A stretch of DNA of 20,000 nucleotides from an uncultured virus (IMG/VR IMGVR_UViG_3300021602_000281). Taxonomy: Duplodnaviria; Heunggongvirae; Uroviricota; Caudoviricetes. The DNA lies in the IMG/VR virus record IMGVR_UViG_3300021602_000281; one strand, given 5' to 3'. How positions within the stretch are numbered: position 1 is the stretch's first letter; every line of letters begins with the position of its first letter. The notes under the pieces are model-generated. The model was not told the origin of the DNA. It made no database searches and saw only the letters and a list, made by a program, of their open reading frames with translations. This document shows, in pieces, positions 10,201 through 16,322 of this stretch. The translations under genes were made by a program, and so were the position numbers.

Positions 10201-10218
10201 TAAGTATACATATATTTA
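10201..10218. promoter_or_regulatory. Overlapping divergent late-promoter cores
   Basis: TAAGTA on plus (10201-10206) points to the gp26-like gene. TAAATA on minus (10213-10218) points to the tape-measure gene. Confidence 0.45.
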
Positions 10219-10229
10219 TGGAGTTCAAA

Positions 10230-11081
10230 ATGAACAGTTTATCAACTAATCCGCTGGCAAAGCATTTTAGACAGCCAATTTTACATATTAAACTTCCAAG
10301 CCAAGGAAAATGGTGGACAGAAGGAAGCATTGAGTTACCAGTGACCGGGGAATTGCCAGTGTATGCAATGACTGCCAAAGATGAAATCACTATAAAAACA
10401 CCAGACGCATTATTAAACGGAACTAGTACCGTGGCTGTGATCCAAAGTTGCTGCCCAAACATTAAAAATGCGTGGAAGCTGCCAATGGTAGATTTAGATA
10501 AAATATTAATTGCTATACGAATTGCCAGTTACGGCTCTGAATTGGAATTCACTTGTGTATGCCCCCATTGTAACACCAAGAACGAACACGGACTTGATAT
10601 TTCCGTAATGAGCGATAAAATTGGACTTGGGTCATGGGATACTCCAGTATTAGTGGATAATTTAGAAATTACACTATCCCCGCAGTCATACGAAAGCTAC
10701 AATAAAAACAATATAACAGCATTTGACGAAGAAAGAATTATGAAGGTTGTACAGAATGTTGAATTATCTGACGAAGAAAAAGCAAAACAGTTTGATGTAT
10801 TATTTAGAAAACTAATTGAAACTGGTCTAGCACAAGTTAGTAAAAGTATCCAGCATATTAAAATACTTGATGAAGAACCAGTGATAGTCAACGATCCTGC
10901 ATTTATTAAAGATTTTTTAAATAACTGCGATCGATCTGTTTGGGAAAAAATTAAACTTGCCATTGACAATATTAAACAAGAATCAGACTACACTCAAATT
11001 GATATAATTTGCAGTAATCTTGAATGTGAAAAACCTTTTGTAACACCTTTTACGTTTGAACAAACAAATTTTTTCGCCTAA
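10230..11081 (+). CDS. T4 gp26-like baseplate hub / tail assembly chaperone
   Basis: N-terminal IKLPSQG...VYAMTAKDEI, DLDKILIAIRIASYG, CPHC zinc knuckle and C-terminal CxxxxC...NFFA resemble gp26-family proteins. ATG 10230 has GGAG SD (alternative ATG 10218). Confidence 0.75.
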   Translation: MNSLSTNPLAKHFRQPILHIKLPSQGKWWTEGSIELPVTGELPVYAMTAKDEITIKTPDALLNGTSTVAVIQSCCPNIKNAWKLPMVDLDKILIAIRIASYGSELEFTCVCPHCNTKNEHGLDISVMSDKIGLGSWDTPVLVDNLEITLSPQSYESYNKNNITAFDEERIMKVVQNVELSDEEKAKQFDVLFRKLIETGLAQVSKSIQHIKILDEEPVIVNDPAFIKDFLNNCDRSVWEKIKLAIDNIKQESDYTQIDIICSNLECEKPFVTPFTFEQTNFFA

Positions 11082-11086
11082 GGCTT

Positions 11087-11305
11087 TTGTCTTTAGAGTC
11101 CGAAGAAATTATCCAGCTGCTTGATAAGATGGATAAAGAGACAAAAGCCTTAAAACACGATATATTAACACTATGTTGGTTTATGCGTGGAAGTATATCG
11201 TATGACGATGCTATGATGCTGTCACCCGATGACCGTGATATAATTGGCAAAATTATTAAGAGCAATTTAGAAACTACAAAAGATTCTGGGTTACCTTTCT
11301 TTTAA
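11087..11305 (+). CDS. Small gp51-like baseplate/tail assembly protein, possibly a -1 frameshift extension of the upstream ORF
   Basis: Segment LCWFMRGSISYDDAMMLSPDDRDII follows the gp26-like gene. No clear SD, and the start would be TTG 11087 or ATG 11129. The frame is open from 11060 through the slippery site. Confidence 0.65.
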   Translation: MSLESEEIIQLLDKMDKETKALKHDILTLCWFMRGSISYDDAMMLSPDDRDIIGKIIKSNLETTKDSGLPFF

Positions 11306-11420
11306 GAAGTTTTGATATATCCATAACACCGGCCCATTAAAGCTAGTGTTTTTATTTTTACTATATGTATGCCAGCTGTAAACTTATAATAGTATACTAC
11401 TATATTGATATAACCTCACC

Positions 11421-11426
11421 TAAATA
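11421..11426 (+). promoter_or_regulatory. TAAATA late-promoter core
   Basis: About 40 nt upstream of the small membrane-protein ATG. Confidence 0.5.
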
Positions 11427-11467
11427 TTCTACTGTCAGAGATGATGGTATTTAAAAGGAGATTTATA

Positions 11468-11701
11468 ATGGATATTCTTAATACGATTAAGAAGTGGGCT
11501 AGTACATTAGCAGACACAGGAGTTAGTATCATCGCTCTTGCTATTGTGCTAGAAGTTCTATTTAAAGGAGTAGCAATTCCTTTCTTTCCAGCAGTATCAG
11601 TAACTGCAAACGTTACATCGATTGTAGCGTCAATTGGGTCACAAGGTCTTGTGGGCTTAGTGGCTATTTGGGTGCTTTATAGCATCTGGAAAAACAAATA
11701 A
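11468..11701 (+). CDS. Small membrane protein (77 aa, 2-3 hydrophobic segments)
   Basis: AAGGAG SD 7 nt before ATG 11468. Hydrophobic stretches GVSIIALAIVLEVLF and GLVGLVAIWVLYSIW, with a basic C-terminus. Confidence 0.8.
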   Translation: MDILNTIKKWASTLADTGVSIIALAIVLEVLFKGVAIPFFPAVSVTANVTSIVASIGSQGLVGLVAIWVLYSIWKNK

Positions 11702-11721
11702 TCAATCTGTTGATCTAAAAT

Positions 11722-11770
11722 AAGAGGAATATCCCATTCGTAGTATATCTGCGAGTGTTATATTCTTCTT
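11722..11770 (+). terminator. Long imperfect hairpin 3' of the membrane-protein gene (terminator/stabiliser candidate)
   Basis: AAGAGGAATAT-CC-CATTCGTAG-TATAT-CTGCGAGTG-TT-ATATTCTTCTT. It has three G-U pairs on the plus strand and is followed by a T-rich tract. Confidence 0.5.
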
Positions 11771-11849
11771 TCTATTTCGAGACTTACTACGTAAGTCTAT
11801 TGATATCGCTATCGCTCATCAATTTATTTTTTTAATTGTTTTTGTTTTT

Positions 11850-12260
11850 AGATAGTATCATCCAGATTAATTGGTCACACTTTGCCCGCACTGGGCAAAG
11901 ATAAGATCTGTAGCATCATCCGAGTAGCACAGTCACTTAGCGTTACAACATTACAGAGGCGGTTGTCCGGTACCTCGAGTTGTGTCTTTATACAACGGCG
12001 GTCCACAATATATACGCTAACATACTTGTGAACGTGTAGCATCACTGCTACGTCTTTTTAGCCTTTAATTTTTTTCAAACAATCAAACCGCGGCGATTAG
12101 CGATCTTCGTCCTGTTAAGGATAGTGATTGAGTGCTCTTTTACAGCGAAGAGTCTTCCGTCCCTGTGATCCGAGATCCAGTTGTCGTGGGCATCCGTGCT
12201 TAGCCGATGCTAGCCTATACTGTATTTGCGTTCTGAGCCGGACTTTGTGTCGGAAGTGAT
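11850..12260 (-). ncRNA. Candidate large structured non-coding RNA (family not recognised)
   Basis: No ORF of 60 aa or more. About ten adjacent stems, with G-U pairs and a GUGA tetraloop that favour the minus strand, and a 7-bp loop-distal complementarity. Boundaries are approximate. Confidence 0.6.
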
Positions 12261-12262
12261 TG

Positions 12263-12691
12263 TTACAACTTGTTTATGATATGGGAGCCATGGACACGAA
12301 CAGAAATCTGTCCGTTATAATAATCTGTAGTTTCTAATACTTTACGTTCAAATTGTTCTCTTGCTTCAATGTAACTACACTCTGCCTTACTTTTACAGTA
12401 ATACAATATTTCACGTGTAAACTTGTCAATACCCAATTTTTCTACGTCACTGTTTAATTCTAAATTTGAGCCATAATATGATTGCCAATCCGAATCAACT
12501 TTGCTTCGGATTTTCTTTTTCTTTTTGTTACCATTTTTTAACTTTACTACCTTGTACGACGTTTTACTAAACTTTGCTAATTTTTTTCCAACATATTTCC
12601 TACCAGATACAGTATTTGTAATCAAATATACAAAACCTATACAGTCTTCGGGTAGAGTTTCTACTAAGATATTTTCGTGTAGCCATGTCAT
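12263..12691 (-). CDS. GIY-YIG family endonuclease
   Basis: GFVYLITN...KYVGKK motif, YYGS segment, FTREIL, conserved Glu (YIEAREQ) and YYN. 142 aa, nuclease domain only, with a very basic insertion. Confidence 0.85.
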   Translation of the reverse strand: MTWLHENILVETLPEDCIGFVYLITNTVSGRKYVGKKLAKFSKTSYKVVKLKNGNKKKKKIRSKVDSDWQSYYGSNLELNSDVEKLGIDKFTREILYYCKSKAECSYIEAREQFERKVLETTDYYNGQISVRVHGSHIINKL

Positions 12692-12710
12692 GCATAGTAG
12701 TTATCTCTAT

Positions 12711-13721
12711 TTACCAGGTGGTGGCGTATTCTTGATTTACAACGGTTGTATTACATTTTGTTTTACATTCTTGCCATCTAAAAGTTTTAAGTTCGGTTTC
12801 CCAAAACGGGTCACCGAGTACTTCTTCTAAATTGCGAGTCTGTAAACTAAACCTTTCTGCTAGTTCCTGCCATTCATTGTTGTGACTGTATCTATTTGCA
12901 ACCCAACAACACGGAAATAATCTACCACGTGCATCAATATACAACCCTTTGTTACCAATTTCGCACAACGGTATAATTTCTTTATTGTCTTTTACTTTGT
13001 TATATAATATAGCATTAGCAACATTAAACCTAACGGTTTTTGCTATTCTGGACAAATTCTTTGTAATTCTTTCAAATCTATGTGTACTGCTCACAAATTT
13101 AGTACTTGGCTGTAAAGGATCATCAACTCCGTATATTGGATACACACTCCCAAACTTGGTAGACTTGGTAATTTGAAAAACATCCATGCCTAAATTAAAT
13201 GCTTGTTGTTCCATGGCAGCTAAATGATCTTCGTTAAACTTAAACGCAATAGCAGCCCATGTCATGCGACATGTTGAATATTTGCGTACACTTTCAATAC
13301 CATTAATTATGCTATCGTAGTCGCTGTTCACACGATATAAATTATTGCTTTGGTTATTAAATCCATCAACACTAAAATGTATGCTATCTACGCTGGTTAA
13401 TGTCTGCGCCAGCTCTTTCCACCAGGATACTTTTTTATGGGATCCGTTTGTAATAATAACAATCTCAACTGGCTTGATACTTTTGATGTATTGTATCACA
13501 GCAATTAAGTCGTGTGCATATATAGGATCACCATCGTCACCACAGAATGTAATTTTCTCTACGTTGGCTTTGATAAATTCTGGCGTAAAGTTGCGTTGAA
13601 AAAATTCTAAGTCTAACTCAGTGTTTATCAGGCTGTCTGGCACTTCTTGTCTAGCACACCTAGGACAACGTAGCGTACACTTACTGCTAATTTCAATATG
13701 AAAGTGCCACGTGGCTAACAT
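12711..13721 (-). CDS. Radical SAM protein with C-terminal SPASM/twitch-like domain
   Basis: CTLRCPRC [4Fe-4S] motif, CGDDGDP, ITNGS, FSVDG, and C-terminal C...YIDARGRLFPCC...CKTKC. Confidence 0.9.
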   Translation of the reverse strand: MLATWHFHIEISSKCTLRCPRCARQEVPDSLINTELDLEFFQRNFTPEFIKANVEKITFCGDDGDPIYAHDLIAVIQYIKSIKPVEIVIITNGSHKKVSWWKELAQTLTSVDSIHFSVDGFNNQSNNLYRVNSDYDSIINGIESVRKYSTCRMTWAAIAFKFNEDHLAAMEQQAFNLGMDVFQITKSTKFGSVYPIYGVDDPLQPSTKFVSSTHRFERITKNLSRIAKTVRFNVANAILYNKVKDNKEIIPLCEIGNKGLYIDARGRLFPCCWVANRYSHNNEWQELAERFSLQTRNLEEVLGDPFWETELKTFRWQECKTKCNTTVVNQEYATTW

Positions 13722-14569
13722 AATTGCACCTCACGTTGCCATTGGTTTGTAAAGCTATTATTGGTACCGGAACATGTTGCACGACACACAGGATGCGGAT
13801 TGGTGTTCCATGTTGCAGATACTTGTTCCATTGTGACAAATTCTGTTTGGGTACTGCCCAACCAACAGCAAGGGCTGACACGGCCTTGTGCATCTATATA
13901 AGTACTTTGCTCTTGTACTGCAATACATTGTATTGGACCCGCTTCCTGCTTGGGATCTTGCCACCCAATGGGAAACTCTAGTCCGTTAATATACGGACGT
14001 TTACTAACCTTGGCACGGAACCAAGTAAAGCCCAAGGAATGTGCAAATTCTGCACATTGGTCAACTTGATGTTGGTTGTGTGCATACACTAGCATATCCC
14101 AGTGAGCATGGCCACCTGCATCAATGAATGCTGTTACATTTTCAATTAATTTACCCCAATTGCTATTTTTACGATATATGTGATTGGTATCCGCTAGTCC
14201 ATCTATGCTGAATACAACATAGTCTCTAGGTTGATTGAGTAGTTTGCCAAGTTGGGTCCACCATTGTTTAGTTTGTAAACTCCCATTGGTATTCATACCC
14301 AATGTAATGGCGGGATTGACACTTCTAAAGTAGTTGTATATATCCACAGTATGTGCGCCAGCAGCCGGATCACCATAATTACCGCACATAAACATTTTAT
14401 CCAACTGTTGAATAAATTCTACATTAAACTTATCTTTAATCTGCTCAACAGTTAAATGATGTTTAAGTGCTTTATTGAAAGCTGGATCGGTTTCACGGGC
14501 ACACAAAGGACATGCCAATTGACAAACATCCGTTGGTTCCACATGCAGTACCTTAGGTGATATCAACAT
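13715..14569 (-). CDS. Radical SAM protein with C-terminal SPASM/twitch-like domain
   Basis: CQLACPLC motif, CGNYGDP, NTNGS, FSIDG, and YIDAQGRVSPCC...CRATC. Start taken as ATG 14569, overlapping the gp46 end (ORF track gives 14593). Confidence 0.9.
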   Translation of the reverse strand: MLISPKVLHVEPTDVCQLACPLCARETDPAFNKALKHHLTVEQIKDKFNVEFIQQLDKMFMCGNYGDPAAGAHTVDIYNYFRSVNPAITLGMNTNGSLQTKQWWTQLGKLLNQPRDYVVFSIDGLADTNHIYRKNSNWGKLIENVTAFIDAGGHAHWDMLVYAHNQHQVDQCAEFAHSLGFTWFRAKVSKRPYINGLEFPIGWQDPKQEAGPIQCIAVQEQSTYIDAQGRVSPCCWLGSTQTEFVTMEQVSATWNTNPHPVCRATCSGTNNSFTNQWQREVQLC

Positions 14570-16322
14570 CGGTACTATAACTAGTGTAGCCATTTTCTTT
14601 TACAACATGCAAGGTATTGTTCACGCGACCGATTAATTCATCCTTGTGCGATACTAGCCAAATTGATTTGTTGGACTCCCGCGACATCTTCTTAAGGATA
14701 GCCAACGAACTTTCAACACCTGAGCTATCGAGGCCTGAGTCGATTAACTCATCGATGAACAATAAGTTAATGGGTTGATATAGACTTTCCCACACATCAC
14801 GGAAACTCCAACTTAGCGATAGGATCAATCTATTTCGTTCACCTCTGCTTAAATTGTCAAAGTCTAAATCTCTGCCTAGCTCAGTGATACTTACCGTCAA
14901 GTCGTTATTAAACTTAATAGTATGTGGCAAACCAATGCGGTCTAAGTATTGTCCAAGTCGTGCATTTAGATAGCTTAGGTTTTGATCGATAATACGTTTA
15001 CGTATAAATGAATCTTTGTTTGTTAACAGTTTAAGCAAGAACTCTTGATGCTCTTTAACATTTGTAAGGTCGTTGATAGTGTCGTATGTGATCTCCTCGA
15101 CACCTTGCTCTTGCATTTCAACAATCTGTTCGGCATATGGATCTTGTTCTGCTATCTTAGATGCCAACTGTTCTACCAAGTTATCAACGCTTGCTTGATG
15201 GTGAATGGCATCGGATTCTTTTGTATAAAACGTTTCGGGCTTGGCCCCTAATTTACCAAGCGATGTAGTGGCATTTATTAATTCTGCAACCAACTCTGAA
15301 TGTGCGTTGGCAGCAGATCTAGCAGTTTCTAATTCTGTCTTCTTGCTATCTAGTACTTGTTCGTGTTTGGTGTCGTGGAACGATTGGCCACATGTGTGAC
15401 ACTGATGATTTTCTAGCGTGGTAATTTCAGCAACTAACTTTGAAACAGTTTTTTCTTCTCGTTGCAAATCCATTTTTGCTCGGCTGGTCGCGCTAGAAAG
15501 ATCGTTTAAATCTTTACGCAATTGTTCCCACACAGCAAGCTCTTTGTGCAATTGTATTTCTTTGATGATATCAATTTTTTGCAATTCCGCTGTTGCATTT
15601 TCAATCTTTGTTATCTCTTCGGCATGCTTAGTAGTCCACAGAGTTTGTCTGCGTTTTAAGGCGTCAATTTGCTCTTGAATACGCACATTTGCGTCGGTAA
15701 CTGCCTTAATACGGAACTCTTCTTGCGTTATAGAGTCTCGGGTTACCTTTGTCTGTTCTTTAAGTTTATCGGCTTTTTCGCTTAGTAATGTGATACCAAG
15801 CAATTGCTCAATGATAGTACGTTGATCATTTGCCCGTAATGCCAGGAATGGTTCTGTATAGGTGTTTAGTGCCACAATGTGCTTGAACATATCGTGACTC
15901 ATGCCCAACATACGTTCTATGTCACCTTGTGTTTCTCTGCTGTCACCTTGTGCATCATCGGTAATTTCTTTTTCTTGATCGCCTACCCAAAACTTCATTA
16001 TGTTGGGTTTACGTCCACGTTCAATACGATAGCTTTGCCCGTCTTTTTCAAAATCAATAGTAACCATCATACCTTTAGTATTGGTTTTATTAATTAAGTT
16101 ATCTTTTTTAATGTTAGTTAGAGCATTGCCGTATAACGCATAGCTTAATGCGTTAATGATAGTAGTTTTACCTGTGCCGTTACGGGCACCAGAATCGTCC
16201 CCACCTAGATCTAAGTTTTCACCTAGCACAAGGGTTAAGTCCTGCCGGTCAAAGTTAACTGCTTGGGTAGTATTACCCACACTCATAAAGTTACGAACGG
16301 TTAAGTCTTTTATTTTAAACAT
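14553..16322 (-). CDS. gp46: Recombination endonuclease ATPase subunit, gp46 (Rad50/SbcC-like)
   Basis: Walker A GARNGTGKTT, coiled coil with CHTC zinc hook, signature LSRGE, Walker B/D-loop LLFIDELIDSGLD, and H-loop VSH. Confidence 0.95.
   Translation of the reverse strand: MFKIKDLTVRNFMSVGNTTQAVNFDRQDLTLVLGENLDLGGDDSGARNGTGKTTIINALSYALYGNALTNIKKDNLINKTNTKGMMVTIDFEKDGQSYRIERGRKPNIMKFWVGDQEKEITDDAQGDSRETQGDIERMLGMSHDMFKHIVALNTYTEPFLALRANDQRTIIEQLLGITLLSEKADKLKEQTKVTRDSITQEEFRIKAVTDANVRIQEQIDALKRRQTLWTTKHAEEITKIENATAELQKIDIIKEIQLHKELAVWEQLRKDLNDLSSATSRAKMDLQREEKTVSKLVAEITTLENHQCHTCGQSFHDTKHEQVLDSKKTELETARSAANAHSELVAELINATTSLGKLGAKPETFYTKESDAIHHQASVDNLVEQLASKIAEQDPYAEQIVEMQEQGVEEITYDTINDLTNVKEHQEFLLKLLTNKDSFIRKRIIDQNLSYLNARLGQYLDRIGLPHTIKFNNDLTVSITELGRDLDFDNLSRGERNRLILSLSWSFRDVWESLYQPINLLFIDELIDSGLDSSGVESSLAILKKMSRESNKSIWLVSHKDELIGRVNNTLHVVKENGYTSYSTDVDIT

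Follow-up and report, generated by a model that had tools for sequence, protein, structure and literature searches.

Introduction

On the minus strand of an uncultured virus genome segment (IMG/VR record IMGVR_UViG_3300021602_000281; 20,000 nucleotides, hereafter the window), the loop of a hairpin carries the heptamer UUAGCGU (12020–12014), a perfect Watson–Crick complement of ACGCUAA at 11943–11937, 70 nucleotides (nt) away. Is this pairing of seven base pairs (bp), here termed PK2, a helix of a folded RNA or a coincidence of one sequence? The first-pass annotation, made from the letters alone, read it as a long-range tertiary contact of the kind found in ribozymes and scaffold RNAs, with two hairpins in between, pointed to a second CGCUAA at 12102–12097 as a possible switch partner, and named compensatory changes in homologous sequences as one means of judging it. 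The positions that it gave for the loop, its partner and the second CGCUAA are all correct.

Comparison of homologues indicates that PK2 is a real, old and evolutionarily maintained pseudoknot helix. It lies in a large noncoding RNA, common in uncultured freshwater T4-like phages, that is mostly undescribed; only its first third had been catalogued before, as the Polynucleobacter-1 motif (Rfam RF01718). The window is a T4-like phage genome segment with genes for the gp23 major capsid protein, gp20 portal protein, a prohead protease, a late sigma factor and an SbcCD-like nuclease, and the RNA site occupies a gene-free stretch of 560 nt (12262–11702) flanked by the gene of a 142-residue GIY-YIG protein (c0) and by convergent plus-strand genes. 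No tRNA or tmRNA gene was found in the 20-kb window using ARAGORN, RF01718 is the only Rfam family that reaches threshold anywhere in it, and a blastn search with 11700–12270 against isolate phages gave no match.

Homologue collection and alignments

Homologues were collected with a pattern made of two invariant blocks of the 5′ domain. It matched 52 viral contig stretches, 80 metagenome stretches (46 true relatives according to nhmmer and 34 chance matches without an nhmmer hit) and 11 stretches of bacterial genome contigs (one true relative, locus L193). Deduplication of 94 loci left 59 distinct full-length sequences. Pairing was counted column by column on A3, made from 43 sequences of class A (38 of the rows distinct) by MAFFT with no fit to a structure, and on A5, an alignment of 22 class-B sequences. 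Class B, which came to light through the search that started from the protein, comprises L200, L203, L208 and 19 more loci, where it lies about 190 nt past the stop codon of the GIY-YIG gene; it has a different conserved 5′ domain without an Rfam match (containing, for example, GGCGUCAAAGGCAAUUGCUAACUUAAGGCAAC) joined to the same pseudoknotted 3′ core.

A covariance model of the class-A core (R1) found 47 of 60 sources and missed the L003 group (of which only L014 scored, at 18.8 bits) and all distant variants. Its 3′ strand is probably misplaced in the insert carriers L009, L031 and L063; the corresponding alignment, A4, was kept out of the counts and the distant groups were read by eye. A further measure, the longest complementary run over wide segments with G-U allowed, was rejected as uninformative (own mean 8.0, cross mean 7.5) in favour of the column-wise counts.

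The PK2 helix

In the window alone PK2 is unremarkable. The hairpin that carries it (Hb, 12033–12001) has an 8-bp stem, GUUCACAA/UUGUGGAC, extendable by GUAU/AUAU, and a loop that reads G-UUAGCG-U; the second CGCUAA lies in the last hairpin of the RF01718 match. The 376-nt RNA contains five perfect complementary 7-mer pairs; 500 dinucleotide shuffles give 3.7 ± 2.4, and 170 of them reach five. Of 2000 shuffles, 648 provide the Hb loop with a 7-nt complement, so that the match in a single sequence is at chance level. The minimum-free-energy fold of the region is likewise unremarkable (z = −1.07). The significance of PK2 comes from covariation in the homologues and not from the match in one sequence.

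On A3, standard pairs fill 97.3% of the PK2 cells and six of the seven pairs show double changes. There are 34 double-change cells, compared with 8.1 ± 2.2 after column shuffling (none of 500 shuffles reaches 34), and sliding the partner by one to three columns reduces pairing to 21–50%. The helix is kept through more than 20 sequence versions, among them UUAGUGU/ACACUAA, CUAGUAU/AUACUAG, CUAGCAU/AUGCUAG, UUAGCAG/CUGCUAG, AUAGCGU/ACGCUGU, ACAAUAU/AUAUUGU and ACAAUAG/UUAUUGU. The first pair is the least regular (standard in 29 of 35 scorable distinct rows, with several sequences mismatched there) and L093 has an internal U-U. In a divergent subgroup read by eye the strands are CUCUAAU/AUUAGAG, one member having altered both sides to CUCUAAA/UUUAGAG, or UCUGAUA/UAUCAGA; distant variants, also read by eye, carry AUCUAUC/GAUAGAU, CUACUUA/UAAGUAG, UCACUUC/GAAGUGA or CACUUUG/CAAAGUG in the equivalent topological place.

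Class B provides a second comparison. Its loop sequence is unrelated to that of class A and its PK2 is an AU-rich helix of 9 bp (AUUUAUCAU/AUGAUAAAU and variants), yet 97.4% of the cells on A5 are paired, with double changes in four of nine pairs and 28–55% in the slid controls. The two strands therefore change together in the homologues of both classes, as the first-pass annotation had proposed to ask, with no slid control above 55%. We regard the helix as real and old because the pairing has been kept in a second class with an unrelated loop sequence, and as a true pseudoknot because the hairpin that carries its 5′ strand itself covaries, with double changes in all 12 of its pairs.

The proposed switch did not fare as well. 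On alignment A1 the alternative partner at 12097–12102 is paired in 72.4% of cells, its central pair is missing from 27 of the 38 sequences and four other positions are broken in 7–15 sequences; class B, moreover, keeps PK2 without the Polynucleobacter-1 domain in which that partner lies. On both counts we reject a fold switching between the two CGCUAA copies. The suggestion that PK2 is no terminator holds: the scan placed no minus-strand terminator-like site at 12001–12033 or 11937–11943, the only one listed on that strand being at 12106–12085, within the 5′ domain, and the pairing is a helix of a structured RNA.

Architecture of the core

The homologues indicate a core that is a double pseudoknot, in which Hb is crossed by PK2 and a second long-range helix, Hc, crosses both Hd and He; coordinates and support are collected in Table 1. 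Hd lies between the strands of Hc and He, and the 3′ strand of Hc is part of the Hd loop. Pairing reaches 97.9% of cells in Hc (double changes in three of five pairs, e.g. GUCAU/AUGAC and GUCAG/CUGAC) and 96.8% in He (likewise three of five). In the window, GUUGU and ACAAC occur twice each and so permit a pair of local hairpins between the strands of PK2, as in the first-pass annotation. These hairpins are drawable in this one sequence, but the homologues favour the crossing helices: the local alternatives are paired in 80.4% and 72.1% of cells, with central positions unpaired in up to 24 of 38 cells. Upstream of Hb, the hairpin Ha occurs in versions such as GUGCAA-GCGA-UUGCAC and GCAGG-GAAA-CCUGC; its pairing on A3 is low (70.6% of cells) because MAFFT shifts subgroups against one another.

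Unpaired stretches of the core are near-invariant (CCGCC, AUAAAGAC and GGUACCGG..ACCGCC). Minus-strand G-U pairs are common and include an invariant U-G in Hd, from which the minus strand is taken to be the one that folds. PK2, one base from He, would probably stack on it, and this stacking would close the core into a rigid hub. Our confidence in the structure as a whole is high.

A chance complementarity, or a feature acting at the level of DNA (single-stranded DNA hairpins, an origin or a protein site), can call on the chance-level 7-mer match, on the tolerance of single-stranded DNA for G-T pairs and on mini-hairpins of the GCGAAGC type in some equivalents of 11800–11822; such mini-hairpins are stable in DNA. 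Covariation in two sequence-unrelated classes, strand-specific G-U pairs, the strong RF01718 match of the 5′ domain, loops of the GNRA and UUCG types and contigs from RNA libraries leave this reading scarcely credible.

Table 1. Features of the RNA locus and its neighbouring gene (positions in the window)
Feature	Position	Strand	Support or remark
c0, gene of 142-residue single-domain GIY-YIG protein	12263..12691	-	ends 47 nt upstream of the RNA; PF19835, PHROG 447
5′ domain, RF01718 Polynucleobacter-1	12077..12215	-	104.7 bits (gathering score 37); model positions 1–141 of 141
Ha, 6-bp hairpin GUAGCA/UGCUAC with GNRA-type loop GUGA	12036..12051	-	double changes in all 6 pairs on A3
Hb, hairpin with PK2 5′ strand in its loop	12001..12033	-	double changes in all 12 pairs; 78% of cells paired on unfitted alignment
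PK2 5′ strand UUAGCGU	12014..12020	-	in Hb loop
Hc 5′ strand GUUGU	11992..11996	-	partner ACAAC 11962–11966 in Hd loop; second pseudoknot
He 5′ strand ACAAC	11979..11983	-	partner GUUGU 11945–11949
Hd, hairpin GAGGU...GCCUC with near-invariant loop ACCGGACAACC	11956..11976	-	100% paired; double changes in 2 of 5 pairs
Hc 3′ strand ACAAC	11962..11966	-	covariation
He 3′ strand GUUGU	11945..11949	-	covariation
PK2 3′ strand ACGCUAA	11937..11943	-	one base 3′ of He; 97.3% of cells paired, class B 97.4%
X1 GGAUGAU, in repeat unit 1 (~11936–11913)	11915..11921	-	identical to X2 in 89 of 90 loci
Hg, hairpin CUUUGCCC-AGUGC-GGGCAAAG between the units	11880..11900	-	RNAalifold pairs with compensatory changes (columns 396–415)
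X2 GGAUGAU, in repeat unit 2 (~11883–11855)	11857..11863	-	58 nt from X1
Hairpin UUGAU/AUCAA, conserved loop GAGCGAnAGCGA(A/U)	11800..11822	-	stem compensation by eye, no formal count
Terminal hairpin AGACUUAC-GUA-GUAAGUCU, probable 3′ boundary	11780..11798	-	equivalent hairpins in other loci

Extent of the RNA and its 5′ domains

The RF01718 match covers the 5′ domain and not PK2. Conservation continues beyond it: the 217 nt past the match are conserved in 43 of the 52 viral loci (E ≤ 6e-9) and the conservation profile stays high as far as about 11858. On these two grounds the conserved RNA is estimated at about 365 nt (12222–11858), with RF01718 as its first ~140 nt only, and it probably runs on to the terminal hairpin at 11780, for a total of about 440 nt. 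The 3′ core has no Rfam match. Among 20 class-B loci searched against Rfam at E ≤ 0.01, Polynucleobacter-1 was found in one and no ribozyme or intron family in any. As judged from the two classes, Polynucleobacter-1 is an exchangeable 5′ domain only, and the pseudoknotted core the 3′ domain. The orphan motif catalogued in 2010 is on this evidence a lesser and interchangeable part of a far larger RNA with multiple pseudoknots, for which we propose a secondary structure with two crossing helices and a core that is new to Rfam.

In the literature searched, Polynucleobacter-1 was found only in Weinberg et al. (2010; PMC2864571). The table of that paper enters it as RNA ‘y’, cis-regulatory ‘y’ and switch ‘?’, from Burkholderiales and from fresh water or estuary; the supplement has a seed of 16 sequences whose end is that of the Rfam model and which includes sequences like our distant variants L115 and L120. 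The present RNA matches the full model and shares the freshwater setting. It differs in that the model stops at 12077, leaving PK2, the 3′ core, the twin units and the terminal hairpins outside, and in that the 2010 class is cis-regulatory, whereas the RNA here stands at the 3′ end of an operon.

That last difference bears on the idea of a cis-regulatory element of the 5′ untranslated region (5′-UTR) or riboswitch, one version of which has PK2 alternating with 12097–12102. The 2010 table entry speaks for it (Weinberg et al., 2010; PMC2864571), as does the ability of both CGCUAA copies to pair with the Hb loop in the window. The surroundings do not agree with a 5′-UTR placement: no same-strand gene lies downstream in the window, where convergent genes follow, and in other loci a hairpin and TATAAATA intervene before same-strand genes. 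With the alternative pairing unconserved and class B lacking the 5′ domain altogether, this reading is largely refuted and we give it very little weight. After the terminal hairpin, some loci have the stop codon of a converging gene; in others TATAAATA, which we take to be the T4 late-promoter consensus, comes next and a same-strand gene after it. For this reason the RNA is placed at the end of a transcription unit and not in a 5′-UTR, and the ‘cis-regulatory’ label is corrected.

One distant full-length variant comes from outside the viral contigs, at L193:3951–4400 on a contig of a Syntrophobacter sp. metagenome-assembled genome that has no GIY-YIG gene. A DUF6641 gene lies upstream on the opposite strand and a 188-residue tyrosine-integrase fragment about 600 nt downstream; the context may be an integrated element or an attachment site.

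The 3′ arm and its twin motifs

3′ of the core are two repeat units of the form AAGUG(UG)AC – spacer – (A)CUC/UCU – X, parted by the covarying hairpin Hg. The heptamers X1 and X2 within them are identical in 89 of the 90 loci matching the unit anchors, across nine variants (AGAUAAU, GGAUAAU, GGAUGAA, GGAUGAU, AGAUGAA, GCAUAAU, AGAUGAU, AGAUGAG and GGAUGAG); the best-matching pair was kept for each locus, which favours identity, although the anchors are tight. The same rule holds, by eye, in distant groups with AGCGAAA, GACAAAA, GCGAAUG, AGACGAA or GGAAAAU. In the alignment the mutual-information pairs 11921/11863, 11917/11859 and 11915/11857 are 98–100% identical: the covariation of X1 and X2 is parallel, not complementary. 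Twin sites kept identical through at least nine variants are an unusual signal, which suggests a partner with two equal sites and points to a specific one.

No complement of X1/X2 in cis was found within −1100 to +350 nt. The sole peak, the G-U-rich RUUGUUU in the 5′ domain, was present in 20 of 78 regions and was rejected as it does not change with X. The spacers of the units (11932–11922 and 11874–11864) are sometimes complementary, as in UGUUCA/UGAACA or CUGGU/ACCAG; the tendency is weak (mean longest run 2.98 within loci against 2.72 across loci; runs of four or more in 15 of the 48 within-locus comparisons and in 14% of the cross-locus ones). Hg takes forms such as CUUAGCCC/GGGCUAAG and CUUCUCCC/GGGAGAAG and is replaced in class B by UUCACCG/CGGUGAA. 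Equivalents of the hairpin at 11800–11822 occur in most loci, with stems GCUUC/GAAGC, GCUGU/ACAGC, GUGUA/UACAC and others around a maintained loop, GAGCGAnAGCGAA; inside it is a GC-GNRA-GC mini-stem bordered by GA and GAA.

Letters resembling a hammerhead (UGAUGAG..CGAA) also fall at 11800–11822, where they sit within a simple covarying stem without an Rfam hit. A ribozyme that cleaves or processes itself and in doing so trims the operon transcript at its 3′ end would account for a double-pseudoknot core with near-invariant unpaired nucleotides, cores of this type being typical of catalytic or ligand-binding RNAs, and would fit an RNA that begins 10–50 nt past a stop codon with no conserved promoter seen. 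Ribozyme, intron, RNase P, tRNA and tmRNA models, however, have no match over 11400–12700 at E values up to 10, where RF01718 and weak chance hits are all that appear, and the class-B search described above was equally negative; nor was a conserved signature of a cleavage site identified, and the letters that recall a hammerhead are those of the simple stem. We consider a ribozyme highly improbable.

The neighbouring GIY-YIG gene

The protein encoded by c0 matches Pfam PF19835 (SegE_GIY-YIG; E = 2e-31) over residues 3–129 of its 142. Residues G19, Y22, Y33, G35, R93, E109 and N126 are invariant in 68 unique c0 proteins, most relatives being 141–148 amino acids (aa) long; the GIY, YIG, Arg, Glu and Asn positions presumably have catalytic roles. 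Given the span of PF19835, c0 lacks the C-terminal DNA-binding domain that follows the nuclease domain in Seg and I-TevI enzymes, as described in the consulted portion of PMC3664794. No significant match to a solved structure was found with the c0 sequence (best E = 0.25). Members of the family are often labelled ‘NAD synthetase’, also in PHROG 447; this looks like a propagated mis-annotation.

Seen from the RNA, 47 of 53 loci have a same-strand c0 homologue of about 142 aa that ends 0–55 nt upstream, with varying genes beyond it; in four further loci the adjacent open reading frame (ORF) encodes 151–171 aa and does not cluster with c0. Seen from the protein, relatives of c0 are encoded in 588 viral stretches, of which the best 80 loci were taken, 70 of them extending 420 nt or more past c0. 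In 62 of these 70, c0 is followed on the same strand within 1.5 kb by the RNA or its 3′ core: adjacent and full-length in 27, adjacent with a match to the 3′ core only (class B) in 21, and offset in 14. The remaining eight have no RNA within that distance. It is on these two counts, the 588 stretches and the 62 of 70 loci, that we call the RNA common in uncultured freshwater T4-like phages. In about ten offset loci (L198, L204, L224, L237, L246, L251 and L259 among them) a same-strand ORF of 240–330 aa stands between c0 and the RNA; several of the inserted ORFs start with GCS.TAG...GASN, suggesting SGNH/GDSL hydrolases.

Isolate phages present another picture. A single c0 relative is found in each of 437 isolate records at 36–49% identity (430 at 80% coverage or more), mostly cyanomyoviruses together with phages of Methylophilales, Sinorhizobium and others, the gene being single-copy and near-universal in Kyanoviridae-like phages. 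In the four complete isolate genomes inspected, other genes follow the c0 relative directly, and neither RF01718 nor R1 matches anywhere. Conversely, the distant RNA variants L086, L115, L120, L125 and L193 have no c0 upstream. The two are tightly linked in one freshwater lineage and neither needs the other in general, since isolates carry c0 without the RNA and distant RNAs occur without c0.

How the RNA relates to this clear genetic neighbour can be read in more than one way. It might be a functional partner of c0, whether it guides the nuclease, activates or inhibits it or serves as its substrate; X1 and X2 would then be the two sites that the nuclease recognises or cleaves. The proximity in both samples (47 of 53 and 62 of 70 loci), the lack of room in c0 for a C-terminal DNA-binding domain and the behaviour of gene and RNA as a conservation island (73–77% aa identity for c0 against 38–44% for its neighbours in the same locus pairs) point this way, and a precedent is offered by the single-domain Ssn nucleases, which, in the part of PMC11893778 consulted, recognise hairpin repeats beside their own gene. 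The same part of that source states that SsnA does not bind RNA. The partnership is improbable in our view: the four complete isolate genomes show that the protein family works without the RNA, five of the distant RNAs have no c0 upstream, and the two are separated by a 240–330-aa ORF in about ten loci.

Alternatively, the RNA may be an independent conserved gene, beside which c0 has settled as a fixed or still homing endonuclease, the association reflecting synteny or co-conversion rather than a common function. Each of the two occurs without the other, the flanks vary around the conserved c0–RNA pair, and T4 SegB, according to the consulted part of PMC2330249, is a GIY-YIG homing endonuclease within an RNA-gene cluster. 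Set against this, c0 is single-copy, near-universal (437 records) and strongly conserved. Homing endonucleases are typically sporadic and decaying. This reading is unlikely on present evidence, though less so than the partnership; it is compatible with the explanation of the RNA itself that is favoured below.

Functional implications

The RNA is most likely a stable noncoding RNA that would be made from the 3′ end of the operon ending with the GIY-YIG gene. In the model that we propose, the rigid hub would fix the 5′ domain relative to a 3′ arm that shows X1 and X2 as two single-stranded 7-nt motifs. That the folded scaffold offers these twin sites to a two-site partner, for instance a protein dimer or the same target in two copies, is a tentative step, which we think possible rather than probable. 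For the RNA overall, we lean slightly towards a pseudoknotted core with a twin-site scaffold as the best explanation, and we do not think that it is a terminator, a 5′-UTR switch or a DNA hairpin.

Transcription is hinted at weakly. Parts of the stretch were found in six metatranscriptome runs, and contigs from RNA libraries (four runs from four studies) cover parts of 11874–12311 and the c0 ORF at 95–100% identity, some of them representing variant strains. Such contigs give no ends, strand or level and may derive from DNA carry-over, and the parts that they leave uncovered carry no meaning.

Several points weigh against the scaffold model and the structure beneath it. Contigs from RNA libraries cannot prove transcription or define the ends of the RNA. 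The sequences are related, so that shuffle controls overstate significance; the slid controls and the two sequence-unrelated classes argue against a phylogenetic artefact. Ha (70.6%) and Hb (78%) score lower on the unfitted alignment than the other helices. G-T wobble is also possible in single-stranded DNA, and with it a fold of single-stranded DNA. The parallel identity of X1 and X2 could have other origins, for example recognition by a nuclease or concerted evolution, and the twin-site scaffold role is something that we only infer.

A bolder proposal, speculative and distinctly improbable, is that the 3′ core and the twin motifs define a new class of phage ribonucleoprotein, in which a genome-specific 7-nt code is shown twice to a two-site partner such as a dimeric c0, with the 5′ domains (Polynucleobacter-1 or that of class B) as alternative sensor or adaptor modules on a shared core. 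If this were true, the RNA would programme, tether or restrain a nuclease that is unable to find its targets alone.

Comparison with known systems

Large orphan RNAs that are conserved and intricately folded are uncommon, and new biochemistry has come from them repeatedly. GOLLD and ROOL are large orphan structured phage RNAs of several hundred nucleotides with multiple pseudoknots, found in phage and prophage DNA and in environmental sequences. The RNA described here is also large, multi-pseudoknotted, phage-borne and without an assigned function; unlike them, it is not near tRNA genes, is linked to a GIY-YIG gene and carries twin identical motifs, and there is no sequence or model match between them. 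In group I introns (P3/P7) and RNase P (P4/P6), a loop or strand pairs with a distant segment, locks a multi-helix core and covaries. The locking of the core by a loop-to-distant-strand pairing kept by covariation is shared with these RNAs, but the order of helices is unlike that of group I (there are no equivalents of P4–P6 or P8) and no Rfam intron or RNase P model matches.

The setting has counterparts among GIY-YIG proteins. As far as the consulted text of PMC2330249 goes, T4 SegB in its tRNA cluster is likewise a Seg-type GIY-YIG gene beside structured-RNA genes in a T4-like phage; c0 differs in consisting of the nuclease domain only (142 aa) and in being single-copy and widespread, which argues against a sporadic distribution. 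The Ssn nucleases, in the portion of PMC11893778 consulted, are small GIY-YIG-only proteins, and a conserved nucleic-acid motif that folds flanks their gene. That motif, on the same authority, is a single-stranded DNA hairpin repeat with many genomic copies, on which the enzyme acts without RNA binding, in contrast to the one large pseudoknotted RNA per genome found here; c0 moreover belongs to PF19835, whereas SsnA is placed in another subfamily (cd10448). A literature search for GIY-YIG proteins with noncoding RNA or in RNA-guided roles gave no description of such an RNA–gene pair, although bioRxiv supplements and other papers may hold one.

Two further neighbourhoods in the window deserve mention. 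Between the SbcC-like gene and c0 lie two adjoining minus-strand radical-SAM genes (12711–13721 and 13715–14593), in a slot that varies among related loci. On the plus strand, a gp26-like baseplate-hub or chaperone gene (10218–11081) is followed by an ORF of 72 aa (11087–11305).

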